DNA of 47,091 bases from Escherichia coli (GTDB lineage Bacteria > Pseudomonadota > Gammaproteobacteria > Enterobacterales > Enterobacteriaceae). Positions within the stretch are counted from its first letter, which is position 1. Every line of letters begins with the position of its first letter. Below the pieces are notes generated by a model. The model was not told the origin of the DNA and made no database searches. It saw only the letters and a list, made by a program, of their open reading frames with translations. Position numbers and translations under genes: made by a program. This document shows positions 590 through 44,672 of this stretch, piece by piece. The DNA lies in NCBI RefSeq assembly GCF_003334255.1, contig NZ_QOWU01000042.1. The stretch is one strand, 5' to 3'.

Positions 590-1015
590 TTAAGCTGCTT
601 TTTTACTGATACGTTTATTCCGTGAACCAGCTGCTGGCTTAAATAAAAAAAGTCGGTTTTCCCATTCGTGCCATTCTTGCGGTGCGTTTTCAGTGAGTCG
701 ATCGCAGGCTTCATCCCATGCTTTCCGGTTGATGTAAAGTTCGGCGTTTCCGCCAGGCTTGAGAGGGTCCGCCATGTACACAGCGGGTAATTTCCCTGCT
801 TTTGCCATGCTCACGATGGCGTCAACGGTCTTGCCGATATACATCGCAAACCCTTCTTTTGACAGGAGATGAGAAGGGTTTTGTGAAAGCCTGATTTCTT
901 GGCGTTCAGGGGCTTTGCGCCCGGTCTTTTGGTGTGCGGTTTCTGGCGCATCTGTCAACTGATCGCACTGTGTTTCGGCAGGCGATTCAGGCGCGTTTTG
1001 AGTGACTTCTTGCAT
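590..1015 (-). CDS. P2 Cox-like excisionase / switch repressor with a ~47-aa N-terminal extension (141 aa)
   Basis: Start chosen at ATG 1015 (MQEVTQ), preceded by GGAGGA. The segment FAMYIGKTVDAIVSMAKAGKLPAVYMADP...ELYINRKAW parallels P2 Cox (FAKLIGKSTGAVRRMIDKGKLPVIDMTDP...YWVYLPAW) as I recall it. It is divergent from a C-type repressor, as in P2. Confidence 0.7.
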   Translation of the reverse strand: MQEVTQNAPESPAETQCDQLTDAPETAHQKTGRKAPERQEIRLSQNPSHLLSKEGFAMYIGKTVDAIVSMAKAGKLPAVYMADPLKPGGNAELYINRKAWDEACDRLTENAPQEWHEWENRLFLFKPAAGSRNKRISKKAA

Positions 1016-1122
1016 CTGGTATCCTCCGTTATTGGCCCCTTTTTCGAATAGGGACCATGTAGAACCAATTGCGACTATTCTTGTGTTGCTATACACAAAA
1101 ATTATTGGAGATTAGAAAAATT

Positions 1123-1395
1123 ATGTCAATACCGCAAAATGAGAAATTAAAACTTATCAGAGAGTCCGAACGGATGAAAATGAAGGAACTATCTGATTTA
1201 ATTGGAATTAATTACTATACATATCATGGCTATGAAAGTGGGAAATCTAAGATGCCTCTTGATTTTGGGATCCTTCTTTTGCGGCACGCTCGTTTCCGTA
1301 AATACCGTGACTGGTTTTTGTTCGATGAGGTCGAACCAAAGGCCGGGCAGGTGGTACCGGCTCTCGCACACATTGGGCAAAGCGAAGCGGAATAG
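1123..1395 (+). CDS. C-type (P2 immunity repressor-like) HTH protein, first tandem copy (90 aa), lacking the C-terminal tail
   Basis: ATG at 1123 within ORF 1069..1395. It has an XRE-like HTH (MKELSDLIGINYYTYHGYESGKS). The C-terminal 33 aa are identical to the downstream C protein because of a 100-bp perfect repeat. The stop TAG lies at the repeat boundary. Confidence 0.7.
   Translation: MSIPQNEKLKLIRESERMKMKELSDLIGINYYTYHGYESGKSKMPLDFGILLLRHARFRKYRDWFLFDEVEPKAGQVVPALAHIGQSEAE
1294..1393 (+). repeat. 100-bp perfect direct repeat, copy 1 (3' coding block of the C' gene)
   Basis: ttccgtaaataccgtgactgg...gcaaagcgaagcggaat is identical base for base to 1678..1777, at an offset of 384 bp. Confidence 0.95.
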
Positions 1396-1506
1396 TTCAT
1401 CTGATACCCTCCGTTATTGGTGCTATTTCTATTAGCACTAGTTAGAGCCGCCTAGATTGTCTATAGGTGTGTTTATTGATGCATAAACTAAGAGAGTTAA
1501 CTTACT

Positions 1507-1806
1507 ATGTCAACTAACGTAGGTGAAAAAATTAGAATCATGCGTAAGTCTGAAATGCTTACACAAGAAAAAATGGCTGAAATTACAGGGCTCACGGTAG
1601 CGGCCCTGCGTCAATATGAACAGGGGAGAAATGAGCCAAATCTTGAATCCACAAAAAAGCTGCTCAAGTCTCCCGTCTTCCGTAAATACCGTGACTGGTT
1701 TTTGTTCGATGAGGTCGAACCAAAGGCCGGGCAGGTGGTACCGGCTCTCGCACACATTGGGCAAAGCGAAGCGGAATCATCCCACTCCGGCAAGAAGACT
1801 GGTTAA
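1507..1806 (+). CDS. P2 C-like immunity repressor (99 aa), second tandem copy, full length
   Basis: It has the same length as P2 C and resembles it closely as recalled. P2 C: MSNTISEKIVLMRKSE...APALAHFGQNETTSPHSGQKTG. Here: MSTNVGEKIRIMRKSE...VPALAHIGQSEAESSHSGKKTG. It lies directly upstream of int, as in P2. Confidence 0.85.
   Translation: MSTNVGEKIRIMRKSEMLTQEKMAEITGLTVAALRQYEQGRNEPNLESTKKLLKSPVFRKYRDWFLFDEVEPKAGQVVPALAHIGQSEAESSHSGKKTG
1678..1777 (+). repeat. 100-bp perfect direct repeat, copy 2 (inside the C gene)
   Basis: Identical to 1294..1393. Confidence 0.95.
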
Positions 1807-1872
1807 CGGTCCATCTGGCTTTTATTTCTCAAAATTGTGATCAAGATGATGTTTTCATTGGGGGGCTTCCTT

Positions 1873-2868
1873 ATGTCGATTAAGAAGCTCGCTGATGGCA
1901 AATACTGTGTGGACGTGCGGCCTGCTGGATCTGAAGGAAGAAGATTTCGGCGGCGATTTCCTACCCGTGGTGAAGCGGCGATGTATGAACGCCATGTTCT
2001 GACGCATTATCACGATAAGGACTGGGTCGAAAAACCTATTGAACGTAAAGCGTTAAGCGATCTTCTGGAACTGTGGTGGGTGTACCACGGTAAGAATCAT
2101 CGTTATGGCGCGATGAATCGGGTCAGAATTGAAGCGGTTCTTCGTGATATGCAAGAGCTTGGTATTAACAGAAGTGACCACTTAACCCGAAAAAATATTA
2201 TCAGATATCGCCTTGAATTAATGAATCGCGGAATTAAGCAGTCAACGGTAAATCGTTATTGTGCAATGATGAGCGGTTTCTTTGAAAAGCTGATTGATGT
2301 TGAAGAGTTTGTGGGTGATAACCCATTTCACGAGATACGCAAGCTAACAATTAATCAGCCGGAAATGGCTTATCTTGCACATGATGATATTCCCAGGCTA
2401 ACCGCACTTTTATCTGGCGATAATCTTAAGGCTGTATTGTTAAGCCTGGCTACAGGCGGACGCTGGGGTGAAGTTGCCAATATTAAAGGTGAACACATAA
2501 TTGGTGGGAAGGTTATTTTCATGGAGACAAAGAATGGATCGCGGCGGGTTATTCCTATAGCTAAAGATCTTGAATCTCTGATTAAAGTCAAAGCGACGGG
2601 AAGATTAATGAACCCCAGTTATGCGATAGTCAGAAGTGCAATAAGGACTGTGCGGCCTGATTTACCAGTCGGTCAGTCTGTGCATGTTTTACGGCACACA
2701 TTCGCAACTCATTTCATGATAAATGGAGGGAACATTATTACCCTTCAGCGTATTTTAGGGCACAGCACAATTCAGCAGACAATGACCTATGCGCACTTTG
2801 CACCTGATTATCTCCAGGACGCGGTAAGGTTCAATCCGGTTGCGGAGTTGTCCAGATTTTGCCCATAA
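1873..2868 (+). CDS. int: P2-family tyrosine integrase (331 aa)
   Basis: Start at MSIKKLADGKYCVDVRP (P2 Int begins MAIKKLDDGRYEVDIRP). The C-terminal HVLRHTFATHFMINGGNIITLQRILGHSTIQQTMTYAHFAPDYLQDA is almost identical to the P2 Int catalytic region as recalled (R..HxxR..Y). Confidence 0.92.
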   Translation: MSIKKLADGKYCVDVRPAGSEGRRFRRRFPTRGEAAMYERHVLTHYHDKDWVEKPIERKALSDLLELWWVYHGKNHRYGAMNRVRIEAVLRDMQELGINRSDHLTRKNIIRYRLELMNRGIKQSTVNRYCAMMSGFFEKLIDVEEFVGDNPFHEIRKLTINQPEMAYLAHDDIPRLTALLSGDNLKAVLLSLATGGRWGEVANIKGEHIIGGKVIFMETKNGSRRVIPIAKDLESLIKVKATGRLMNPSYAIVRSAIRTVRPDLPVGQSVHVLRHTFATHFMINGGNIITLQRILGHSTIQQTMTYAHFAPDYLQDAVRFNPVAELSRFCP

Positions 2869-2958
2869 ACGGGGACTAAATGGCACGATTTTGAACCACT
2901 TTGAACTTGTAACTATTTGATATATCAAGGGGTAGTGCGGTACACGCTACCCCCTTAT

Positions 2959-2982
2959 GCCACCTTCGGGTGGCGTTGTTTT
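2959..2982 (+). terminator. Rho-independent terminator downstream of int
   Basis: gccacc-ttcg-ggtggc hairpin (2959-2974) followed by gttgtttt. It is preceded by a second 9-bp-stem hairpin, ggggtagtg...cgctacccc, at 2929-2953. Confidence 0.7.
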
Positions 2983-3269
2983 ATGCGATGTATCTCGCGA
3001 TTTTTTTTTGTAACTTTTCCATCTTTTGCTTTTCTCTCCGAGCCGCTTTCCATATCTGCAATCGCATAAAAAACTCTGCTGGCGTTCACAAATGTGCAGG
3101 GGTAAAACGGGGGCACGCTTTGAACGGTGAGTATGAGTGAGGTCGGCTAACTTCCAGCAAGTGGCTATGAACAGCAAAATGGTGGTCGGGTTTGCTTGTT
3201 CTTACCGTTCAAGCCTTGCAACCGCTGAGAATAATGATGGTGGAATAGAGAGTTTATTTATCGCGGGCA

Positions 3270-3309
3270 TAAAAAAACCCTTACTAACCGAAGCCCGGCG
3301 TTCAGGGTT
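3270..3309 (-). terminator. ppa terminator
   Basis: On the minus strand an aaccct...agggtt stem (3276-3281 / 3304-3309) is followed by a run of U (A-run 3271-3277 on the plus strand), just after the ppa stop. Confidence 0.7.
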
Positions 3310-3325
3310 ATTGCGCTAGAAGAAC

Positions 3326-5132: not shown

Positions 5133-5232
5133 GCCTGATGCCGATTCGTAGGCCGGATAAGGCGCTCGCGCCGCATCCGGCGGTGGTGCGCTGAAGCCTG
5201 ATGCGACGCTTACCGCGTCTTATCATGCCTAC
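5133..5232. repeat. REP/BIME cluster (two REP units)
   Basis: gcctgatg...gtaggccggataaggcg...gccgcatccggc and gcctgatgcgacgct...gcgtcttatcatgcctac, the canonical E. coli REP palindromes. Confidence 0.9.
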
Positions 5233-11372: not shown

Positions 11373-11491
11373 GCCTGATATAGTGTGCGTAGGCCGGATA
11401 AGGCGTTCACGCCGCATCCGGCATTTGAGCATAGTGCCTGATGCGACGCTTGATGCGTCTTATCAGGCCTACAGGTGCACCGCATCCGGCA
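11373..11491. repeat. REP/BIME cluster
   Basis: At least three REP units (gtaggccggataaggcgttcacgccgcatccggca; gcctgatgcgacgcttgatgcgtcttatcaggcctac; caccgcatccggca). Confidence 0.9.
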
Positions 11492-21591: not shown

Positions 21592-21855
21592 CATAAATGC
21601 TACGAATATTATTGGATTCTCCTTATTATTTGCGGCGCTTTTTTCACTTACCGGAGGTTATATGGAACCTGATCCCACGCCTCTCCCTCGACGGAGATTA
21701 AAACTTTTTCGGTAAGCCCGTCTTTTCACGGCGTTACCGGATGCGTAAGGCCGTGACGTTTTAACGTCCCTGCTCAGCTTTATTACCTTCAGGTAAGGCT
21801 TCGCCACGCCTGAAGACATTTCTGTACTGTTTCAGACAGTGCGGAGGGACTCCTT
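21592..21855 (+). promoter_or_regulatory. mgtA 5' leader (Mg2+/proline-responsive attenuator region containing mgtL)
   Basis: The long untranslated region between the PhoP-dependent promoter and mgtA contains the proline-rich mgtL ORF. The 5' boundary is approximate. Confidence 0.65.
21662..21715 (+). CDS. mgtL: mgtA leader peptide (17 aa)
   Basis: atggaacctgatcccacgcctctccctcgacgg... encodes [17 protein letters not shown], the known MgtL sequence. Confidence 0.9.
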
Positions 21856-38245: not shown

Positions 38246-38545
<300 letters not shown>

Positions 38546-38546
38546 A

Positions 38547-40061
<1,515 letters not shown>

Positions 40062-44587: not shown

Positions 44588-44672
44588 GCCGAAGTGGCGA
44601 AATCGGTAGACGCAGTTGATTCAAAATCAACCGTAGAAATACGTGCCGGTTCGAGTCCGGCCTTCGGCACCA
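44588..44672 (+). tRNA. leuX: tRNA-Leu (anticodon CAA)
   Basis: gccgaagtggcgaaatcggtagacgcagttgattCAAaatcaaccgtagaaatacgtgccggttcgagtccggccttcggcacca. It has a long variable arm, the anticodon at 44622-44624 and an encoded CCA. Confidence 0.97.

Follow-up and report, generated by a model that had tools for sequence, protein, structure and literature searches.

The stretch of Escherichia coli DNA analysed here (47,091 nucleotides, referred to as the window) contains near its beginning the switch region of a P2-like prophage with two repressor genes in tandem (Table 1). The genes run in the order cox(-), C'(+), C(+), int(+), with cox adjoining C' and int adjoining C, and the whole array sits where a single C would be. 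In a self-comparison of the window, a 100-nt block identical at every position recurs with a spacing of 384 nt, and a 23-nt element (CATCTGGTATCCTCCGTTATTGG beside cox and CATCTGATACCCTCCGTTATTGG between the repressor genes, 21 of 23 positions matching) recurs with a spacing of 385 nt. This bears out the description, in a first-pass annotation, of a unit of about 384 bp present twice, head to tail, with a 3' block identical base for base and an orphan copy of the cox start and Shine-Dalgarno sequence; the open reading frames that it had assigned (C', C and a minus-strand frame of 56 codons) were likewise recovered. The T of the C' TAG stop codon is the final base of the 100-nt repeat, so C' does stop at the repeat boundary without the SSHSGKKTG tail, as had been proposed, and the last 33 residues of C' (90 aa) are common to C (99 aa), both proteins carrying FRKYRDWFLFDEVEPKAGQVVPALAHIGQSEAE. 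The stack is 860 nt long, with the junction GCGGAA-TAG-TT-CATCTGATACCC and cox-to-repressor gaps of 107 and 106 nt. By position, the 23-nt element beside cox corresponds to the part of P2 in which cox translation and the Pc -35 begin. A simple tandem duplication was ruled out, as the 258-nt unit cores differ (44% identity in the coding part) and only the 23-nt and 100-nt ends are common to both units.

Table 1. Features of the stacked switch region, with positions in the window.
Feature	Position	Strand	Basis
cox, 141 aa, first gene of early operon, only cox copy, common to all cassettes	590..1015	-	Pfam Phage_Cox, E 1.1e-27; annotated "Cox family DNA-binding protein" in E. coli DETEC-S792 (100% identical there)
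Cassette 5' boundary element, copy 1: cox ATG (CAT on + strand), Shine-Dalgarno, GTTATTGG	1013..1035	.	23-nt direct repeat
Switch spacer of cassette C': Pe1 -10 and part of candidate operator	1036..1122	.	Promoter scan, repeat search
C' repressor, 90 aa, non-terminal copy, ends at residue 90, without SSHSGKKTG tail	1123..1395	+	phmmer to P2 C structures 2L49/2XCJ, E 1.9e-19
56-codon ORF from orphan cox ATG, antisense to C'	1230..1400	-	ORF list
Cassette 3' boundary element, copy 1: encodes residues 58-90	1294..1393	.	100% identical to 1678-1777
Inter-cassette junction TAGTT: C' stop codon plus 2 nt	1393..1397	.	Recurs at other array boundaries
Cassette 5' boundary element, copy 2: orphan cox Shine-Dalgarno and ATG	1398..1420	.	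23-nt direct repeat, 21/23
Switch spacer of cassette C: Pe2 -10 and Pc-like site	1421..1506	.	Relaxed promoter scan
C repressor, 99 aa, terminal full-length copy	1507..1806	+	Pfam HTH_3, E 3.7e-9; 45.5% identical to P2 gpC (tblastn)
Cassette 3' boundary element, copy 2	1678..1777	.	100-nt direct repeat
Integrase, 331 aa, downstream gene of lysogenic operon	1873..2868	+	Pfam Int_N and Phage_integrase; annotated in relatives
TTTGAAC twice, 10 nt apart, just past int: candidate Cox-binding boxes at attachment site (weak)	2890..2905	+	Sole pattern match in window, about 0.6 expected by chance

A single-repressor relative is informative about what has been added. E. coli DETEC-S792 carries a complete 36.7-kb P2-like prophage with the C unit only, and because the flanks of the window match it (positions 1-1035 at 100% and 1398-3109 at 98% identity), the window can be described as this arrangement with one extra C' cassette. 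C'-type repressors also exist as stand-alone, full-length proteins (100 aa on 792 Salmonella contigs), adjoining cox and int in Salmonella enterica. A third type, here called u0, is likewise found alone as a full-length C, with 686 E. coli contigs carrying a form of 97 aa and at least 1000 Salmonella contigs one of 98 aa. Each cassette core thus has its own stand-alone relatives, in agreement with the earlier proposal that a P2-type immunity module captured from a heteroimmune relative was stacked head to tail on another.

The first-pass annotation was aware of no described P2-like phage with stacked immunity modules. The stack is not unique, and the window represents one state of a polymorphic array of one to three cassettes found on a few hundred E. 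coli contigs. Across 29 loci of the prophage lineage, which lies between ytfP and ppa, the three cassette types u0, C' and C were seen in seven states: C; C'^-C; C^-C'; u0^-C; u0^-C'; u0^-C'^-C; and u0^-C^-C' (^ denotes a truncated copy). In all 29, non-terminal copies end at residue 90, and the terminal copy is full length and the only one with SSHSGKKTG. Truncation is set by position in the array and not by type, C itself being the truncated copy in C^-C' arrays, and no array among them holds the same cassette twice. Triples show up to 19 substitutions between copies and occur in two different orders; doubles are nearly identical to each other, with the same 860-nt stack in four loci (L003, L008, L011 and, from IMG/VR, L013) and a difference of 2 nt in a fifth (L010). 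TAGTT or TAGTC stands at every inter-cassette boundary inspected (L004, L006, L007, L016 and L018) and is absent from single-cassette prophages. The inner 23-nt copies read CATCTGATACCC in nearly all arrays and CATCTGATGCCC in one locus.

Database counts place these arrays among more numerous single-cassette prophages. The exact C protein (99 aa) is found on 819 contigs and the exact C' protein on 192 (truncated C' in total on 192 + 31), with truncated u0 on 240 + 53 + 20 and more contigs and truncated C on 9. A set of 5,426 complete E. coli genomes yielded single-cassette versions only and no tandem C, and each of 132 sequenced phages (P2 and relatives) has one C gene, with no tandem C. The exact junction pattern had no match in JGI metagenome contigs or GTDB species representatives and matched one IMG/VR contig; array examples other than the window all come from draft or metagenome assemblies. 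A separate stack, independent of the one in E. coli, was found in Xenorhabdus. No description of tandem C genes was found in the full-text literature, in which coverage of subscription journals is incomplete.

The first-pass annotation regarded the helix-turn-helix halves of the two repressors as unrelated, and the protein comparisons correct this to diverged homologues. Both are of the HTH_3 type; residues 5-89 of C' are colinear with residues 5-89 of the P2 C structures, and a four-way repressor alignment that includes P2 C is gapless, with 42-45% identity to P2 C. The N-terminal halves of C' and C have 14 of 57 residues in common (44% DNA identity), and the recognition helices differ among the repressors (YYTYHGYES, VAALRQYEQ and YSALTSYEY). 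Across array copies, the N-terminal halves contain 15 synonymous and no non-synonymous polymorphic codons. For u0 alone, which is truncated in every sampled copy, the ratio is 11:0, and dN/dS between C' and the full-length Salmonella homologue is 0.033. Judged from these substitution patterns, the cassette repressors are under purifying selection. Synonymous-only polymorphism may also have been imported by recombination from single-copy phages instead of arising inside arrays.

Recombination has left its own marks on the C-terminal part. In other arrays, the 100-nt block shows polymorphisms distributed as a mosaic across the units, and synonymous divergence (pS) is 0.25 in this block versus 0.73 in the N-terminal half, a pattern that we read from the alignments as recombination footprints in the shared block. 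In some junctions CATCTG is preceded by GTC, matching what directly follows the terminal C (CGGTCCATCTGG). This hints that the junction may have arisen by joining at a microhomology, with the tail lost afterwards, but a match of three bases cannot carry such a conclusion.

Each cassette is predicted to have its own Pe-like promoter. The C' and C genes both open with ATGTCAA, which is the TTGACA -35 hexamer on the opposite strand, and in every cassette a perfect TTGACA lies on or abuts the repressor start codon and is accompanied by a -10 (11/12, 9/12 and 10/12 matches). Pe1 (TTGACA-17-AATAAT, minus strand, 11/12 in the promoter scan) has its -35 at 1129-1124 on the C' start codon and its -10 at 1106-1101; Pe2 (TTGACA-17-TAGTTT, minus strand, 9/12 in the relaxed scan) has its -35 at 1513-1508 on the C start codon and its -10 at 1490-1485. 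A Pc-like site was found by the relaxed scan in the C and u0 cassettes only, in the C spacer as TTAGCA (1432-1437), 15 nt and TAGATT (1453-1458) on the plus strand, with 8/12 matches; the same scan gave no convincing Pc site for the C' cassette. The -35 at the repressor start is the position of the annotated P2 Pe, and the geometry of Pe2 and the Pc-like site fits the annotated Pe and Pc of P2. In the P2-type switch, these two promoters face each other within some 110 bp separating cox from C, a distance that both gaps in the window match.

P2 C-type repressors bind a pair of direct repeats (half-sites) at Pe. Operators could be proposed for two of the three cassettes, in neither case with binding data. 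The candidate for C' is a pair of direct repeats, AAAAATTAT, at 1097-1105 and 1116-1124, 19 nt apart; any 9-mer repeat arises in only 1.75% of shuffles, and the Salmonella C'-type phage keeps a 9-mer repeat at the 19-nt spacing as two copies of CAAAATTAT. The candidate for u0 is CATATGT, present twice, 21 nt apart and flanking the -10. Motif search gave no convincing repeat motif for an operator of the C cassette. Repeats of the form TT(A/T/G)GAAC, 10 nt apart, occur beside int (TTTGAAC at 2890 and 2900) and, resembling TT(A/G)GAAC, in the spacers. In P2, the cox-boxes, found at attP and across Pc, have a spacing of 10-11 nt (PMC3936717). Within the window such a pattern does not exceed chance expectation, and a Cox-box reading was kept as no more than a weak lead. 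The frame antisense to C' is probably a by-product; an equivalent of 56-57 codons exists in each of the three cassette types and stops at the sense gene's invariant Tyr37-Glu38 codons.

We consider it probable, without being able to claim more, that the region is the two-unit state of a recombination-shuffled tandem array of working P2-type immunity cassettes giving compound immunity. Structure, distribution, recombination footprints, promoter motifs and purifying selection were observed as described above, and from them the repression, dual immunity and escape that follow are inferred in the absence of expression, binding or immunity data. A cassette consists of a copy of the 23-nt cox start, a switch spacer of 86-95 nt, the 57-codon N-terminal half of a C repressor as its specificity-determining part, and the 100-nt block for residues 58-90. 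The spacer would hold Pc-side sequence, operator and Pe, the 23-nt part also supplying, by position, the start of the Pc -35. In all earlier cassettes the junction creates a TAG that stops the protein after residue 90, and the 9-residue tail remains in the last only. Each cassette would be a working repressor/operator/promoter set with its Pe directed at the single cox-led early operon, so that the prophage would be silent only if every repressor were made. In the window, the cox-adjacent Pe1 would be held down by C', as the main repressor of the early operon, and Pe2 by C. For this, Pe2 transcription would have to reach cox across 385 nt and a repressor-bound Pe1.

A lysogen of this kind would resist superinfection by phages of all the immunity types that its own array contains, and an array phage would not be fully repressed in a host with only one of those types. 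The repeat structure may have been founded by an illegitimate join of the 3' end of a C gene to a cox start. The 23-nt and 100-nt elements would since then have served as sites of homologous recombination and gene conversion, through which cassettes were added, removed, reordered and homogenised. A fuller version of compound immunity is put forward only tentatively, as a serious possibility that falls short of a conclusion: all cassettes would be active, the lysogen would be immune to two or three classes, the phage would escape single-class hosts, and the array would be a weapon of phage against phage that had arisen at least twice (E. coli and Xenorhabdus) and evolves as cassettes are gained, lost and reordered.

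The array could instead be a neutral by-product of recombination, each repressor silencing its own promoter without benefit while cassettes drift through unequal crossing-over. The coexistence of one- to three-cassette states with single-cassette prophages the commoner form, the absence of arrays from the complete genomes of the RefSeq set, and the near-identity of the doubles, as expected of a recent clone, would all fit. However, perfect 100-nt repeats should lose cassettes readily, yet the triples persist with their up to 19 substitutions and two orders; unequal crossing-over should yield same-cassette duplicates, of which there are none in the 29 loci; and the Xenorhabdus stack is independent. 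We regard this explanation as unlikely, though not so unlikely that it can be dropped.

Among the outcomes that the first-pass annotation had put forward, dual immunity is favoured, by inference only, and a decoy or dominant-negative C' ranks as the least likely, because C' adjoins cox, faces the strongest Pe-like promoter and lacks a tail that is dispensable in P2 C. The decoy idea, in which a truncated upstream repressor forms heterodimers with full-length C and so tunes or weakens immunity, draws its support from residues 58-90, which are identical in C' and C and include the P2 interface positions 63, 65, 66, 73 and 74 (interface list from PMC2995052). Against it, the variable half has seven interface positions by the same list, and C' and C differ at five of them (5, 44, 49, 50 and 54); which type is truncated depends only on array position; and the cox-adjacent Pe1, which C' faces, would be left unrepressed if C' were no more than a decoy. 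In addition, P2 C without its last 9 residues repressed Pe like the wild type (PMC2995052), and in the alignment the array truncation point coincides with the end of that construct. A decoy is accordingly improbable; heterodimers that weaken repression cannot be excluded, because the three repressors have this half of the P2-type dimer interface (63, 65, 66, 73 and 74) in common. An assembly artefact joining two heteroimmune P2-like prophages of one strain through the 100-nt and 23-nt sequences, which the perfect repeats and the draft or metagenome origin of the other examples might suggest, is scarcely credible and was rejected, because misassembly cannot create junction sequence that does not exist in single-cassette prophages (neither GCGGAATAGTTCATCTGATACCC nor a cox-adjacent 23-mer joined directly to the C' spacer occurs in any), the stack recurs in many independent assemblies with several prophage backbones and seven consistent states, and truncated copies are always followed by another cassette.

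Set beside known systems, the proposed cassettes resemble the P2 C/Cox switch (Pe/Pc, O1/O2), with which they share the order cox, switch, C and int with divergent transcription, an HTH repressor of about 99 aa homologous to P2 C, and a Pe -35 overlapping the C start codon; direct repeats around the Pe -10 are candidate operators in the C' and u0 cassettes only. P2 has one C, whereas the array has two or three tandem repressor/promoter sets before one cox, all but the last C without the 9-residue tail. Seven immunity classes of P2-like coliphages were reportedly defined by Karlsson et al. in 2006. In the heteroimmune phages P2 Hy dis and W-phi, too, specificity resides in the variable N-terminal half and the operators, the C-terminal half is conserved, and recombination between related switch regions gives rise to new immunities (PMC1904268, PMC2995052, PMC3448106); there, one immunity was swapped for another, whereas the array adds the incoming cassette beside the resident one and keeps both. 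More than one immunity determinant in a temperate phage is also known from P22, in which immC and immI are non-homologous, far apart and hierarchical (repressor and antirepressor control), unlike the array cassettes, which are parallel copies of the same switch. By analogy only, the arrays recall the orphan toxin/immunity arrays of CDI (cdiA-CT/cdiI) and Rhs, with tandem variable cassettes between conserved sequences through which homologous recombination can swap or reorder them, and a complete gene end at one position only (PMC3482391). The proteins and the biology are unrelated, and the array cassettes are repressors with their own promoters, each copy appearing expressible and not silent.

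In the usual view, a phage has one repressor and one specificity, and new immunities arise by replacement; here, modules accumulate and reshuffle, with the conserved 23-nt and 100-nt ends as recombination handles, and a single prophage may through its tandem array combine several immunity types. Provided that the cassettes function in the inferred way, these handles would be a concrete route for the exchange of immunity classes among P2-like phages, and the arrays would be a natural set of orthogonal small repressor/promoter pairs wired in series. They would also confer an asymmetric competitive edge, in which an array lysogen excludes more phages and an array phage is harder to exclude.

Self-comparison of the window showed that the 100-nt block at 1294-1393 is repeated at 1678-1777 with zero mismatches, and that the 23-nt element carrying the cox start codon and Shine-Dalgarno (1013-1035) has a second copy at 1398-1420 with 2 changes, as the first-pass annotation had described. 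An ORF scan likewise returned its coordinates for the two repressor genes, C' and C, and for the antisense ORF headed by the orphan cox start. Its description of the N-terminal HTH halves as unrelated was wrong; each protein aligns to P2 C without gaps, and the two halves have 14 of 57 residues in common at a DNA identity of 44%. Both genes open with ATGTCAA.

Coordinates of features in the window and in compared cassettes (u0, a third repressor type; Pe, early promoter toward cox)
Feature	Location	Strand	Remarks
145-aa ORF	71-505	plus	convergent with cox; no Pfam match
Cox-family gene	590-1015	minus	141 aa; Pfam Cox domain at residues 40-120
C'	1123-1395		HTH protein, 90 aa
56-codon ORF	1230-1400	minus	starts at orphan cox start
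C	1507-1806		HTH protein, 99 aa
Tyrosine integrase	1873-2868		
Pe1 (predicted)	TTGACA 1129-1124, AATAAT 1106-1101		17 nt between; 11/12 matches
Pe2 (predicted)	TTGACA 1513-1508, TAGTTT 1490-1485		17 nt between; 9/12 matches
Pe of u0 cassette (predicted)			TTGACA-16-TAGATT
Xenorhabdus santafensis stack	NZ_VCDN01000038.1, L058:1087-3335		full-length C genes 1488-1787 and 1986-2285

E. coli DETEC-S792 has this prophage with just one C gene; there it is complete (36.7 kb, P2-like, with ogr, D, tail, baseplate, lysis, capsid, terminase, portal and replication genes) and sited between ytfP and chpSB/ppa. As the window matches it on both sides of a gap (1-1035, 100% identical; 1398-3109, 98%), the window holds one extra unit, which supports and extends the proposal of a stacked second immunity cassette. 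The concern that the stack might be an artefact was settled by its recurrence: the 860-nt cox-to-int interval recurs unchanged in four other loci (one on an IMG/VR viral contig) and with a 2-nt difference in a fifth, and the exact C' protein occurs in 192 contigs. Misassembly of two prophages was excluded, as it cannot yield the two stack-specific junctions, GCGGAA-TAG-TT-CATCTGATACCC and the cox-adjacent 23-mer joined directly to the C' spacer, neither of which is present in single-cassette prophages.

From about 2959 on, the window consists of normal E. coli chromosomal sequence (ppa, ytfQRT, treBC, mgtA, nrdD), 100% identical to several strains, so that only the right-hand 3 kb of the prophage lies within it. 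The match to prophage-free strains begins at about 2959, and hairpins at 2928-2953 and 2958-2973 lie on either side of this junction. The chpS/chpB toxin-antitoxin pair, which separates the prophage from ppa in DETEC-S792 and in many other loci, is missing from the window (2869-3325) and from loci L003, L006-L008 and L011. Matches at Rfam gathering score in the host part (5151-5229, 11392-11469, 21647-21762, 38301-38472, 39306-39500, 44588-44669) are ordinary for E. coli: four naRNA4 (REP-type), the Mg2+ riboswitch upstream of mgtA, Ysr276 and one tRNA. In the prophage part, Cox has an acidic and proline-rich N-terminal extension of ~40 residues that is absent from the 91-aa P2 Cox. The 145-aa ORF looks like a moron-type insertion and is confined to some lineage backbones (L003, L008, L011, L013, L018, L103), with other genes in its place elsewhere.

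The cassettes form an array, of which the stack is one state. Sampling the neighbours of C', a truncated C (P0156) and u0, a third truncated repressor (88 aa), yielded 29 loci from this prophage lineage in seven states: C (1 locus), C'^-C (7, the window among them), C^-C' (1), u0^-C (6), u0^-C' (1), u0^-C'^-C (7) and u0^-C^-C' (6), where ^ marks a copy ending at residue 90. Each cassette consists of the 23-nt cox start copy, a spacer of 86-95 nt, 57 variable codons (55 in u0) and the shared 100-nt block. In this sample, without exception, a TAG made by the junction (TAGTT or TAGTC, then CATCTGAT(A/G)CCC) cuts short each non-terminal copy, and the terminal copy, regardless of type, carries the SSHSGKKTG tail. 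The types also stand alone as full-length C genes: u0 as 97 aa in 686 E. coli contigs and 98 aa in at least 1000 Salmonella contigs, C' as 100 aa in 792 Salmonella contigs (flanked by cox and int in one locus), and C in 819 contigs. Truncated forms are common, in 192 + 31 contigs for C', 240 + 53 + 20 and more for u0, and 9 for C.

Although its parts are those of the P2 C/Cox switch family, the array is arranged differently. All 132 sequenced phage records with a C homologue had a single copy, no array was present in 5,426 complete E. coli genomes, and the searchable literature covers replacement of one immunity by another (P2 Hy dis, W-phi, seven classes) without describing stacking. A survey of 77 species-representative genomes with a C homologue included an independent stack in Xenorhabdus santafensis (cox / C1 / orphan cox 5' fragment / C2 / int), with a 498-nt unit, copies ~74% identical and a junction unlike those of the E. 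coli arrays. Its orphan fragment, between the C copies, is ~65 nt, and its upstream C has changes at otherwise invariant residues (PALACIKLE vs PALAH.GQ). Symbiopectobacterium sp. RP (L081:1100-3540) has a 1236-nt tandem duplication of two small early genes, cox and C, with N-terminal halves that differ between the C copies; this may represent tandem prophage remnants, not a cassette array.

The junctions are homologous at all boundaries, which indicates that the arrays began with a single illegitimate join between the 3' end of a C gene and a cox start; exchange at the conserved cassette ends came later. Within the triples, polymorphisms of the 100-nt block form a mosaic: the same variant combination is found in unit 1 of L006 and unit 0 of L007, as would be expected of gene conversion or unequal crossing-over. 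Doubles are almost invariant; triples are up to 19 substitutions apart and are thus not a very recent clone. Between C and a P88-like C, pS was 0.25 in the block and 0.73 in the N-terminal half, and between C' and Salmonella dS was 0.65 and 1.38. In comparisons across prophage lineages as well as of E. coli with Salmonella, synonymous sites are far more conserved in the C 3' block (1678-1777 vs L002, L015) than in the 5' half of that gene. This is consistent with frequent recombination, but a cis-acting DNA or RNA role is not excluded.

The P2 record places the Pe -35 across the C start codon, operators O1 and O2 on either side of the Pe -10, and the lysogenic promoter Pc beside cox. The window shows this geometry twice, at the predicted Pe1 and Pe2. 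In sampled arrays, the Pe-proximal 25-30 nt of the spacers are almost invariant and the cox side is variable. A candidate operator of C' is AAAAATTAT, present twice 19 nt apart (any 9-mer repeat arose in only 1.75% of shuffles), and a Salmonella C'-type phage has CAAAATTAT twice at the same spacing; in u0 the candidate is CATATGT, twice 21 nt apart around the -10. No convincing repeat pair was found in the C cassette. Helix 3 of P2 C, residues 31-39, reads DNA (PMC2995052), and its residues differ across all three repressors. The truncation keeps exactly residues 1-90, as in the P2 C construct lacking the last 9 residues, which are disordered in the crystal and without which Pe is repressed as by wild type (PMC2995052). 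Polymorphic codons in the N-terminal halves of sampled arrays were 15 synonymous and 0 non-synonymous, 11 of the 15 in u0, all sampled copies of which are truncated. Each cassette looks like a working switch half. C/C' heterodimers are possible but not predicted, because the shared C-terminal half includes P2 dimer-interface positions 63, 65, 66, 73 and 74, but 5 of 7 interface positions in the variable half differ.

The orphan ORF is probably a by-product. It spans 56-57 codons in all three cassette types (window, L004, L016, L018, L100, L106), a near-constant length set by its stop at the invariant Tyr37-Glu38 codons, and the sequences antisense to it differ strongly among types. In the terminal C, too, this antisense frame is open (1611-1793).

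The structure and dynamics of the array are held with high confidence: a shuffled array of P2-type immunity cassettes is a new arrangement of a known system. Compound immunity as its function rests on inference and is proposed with moderate confidence. All predicted Pe promoters face the single cox-led early operon and, since no terminator-like site was found between them, a silent prophage would need every repressor; in the window, the cox-adjacent promoter would be guarded by C', not C. On this view a lysogen would be immune to all types in its own array, and an array phage would be incompletely repressed in a single-type host, at least if the host's type is not the cox-proximal one.
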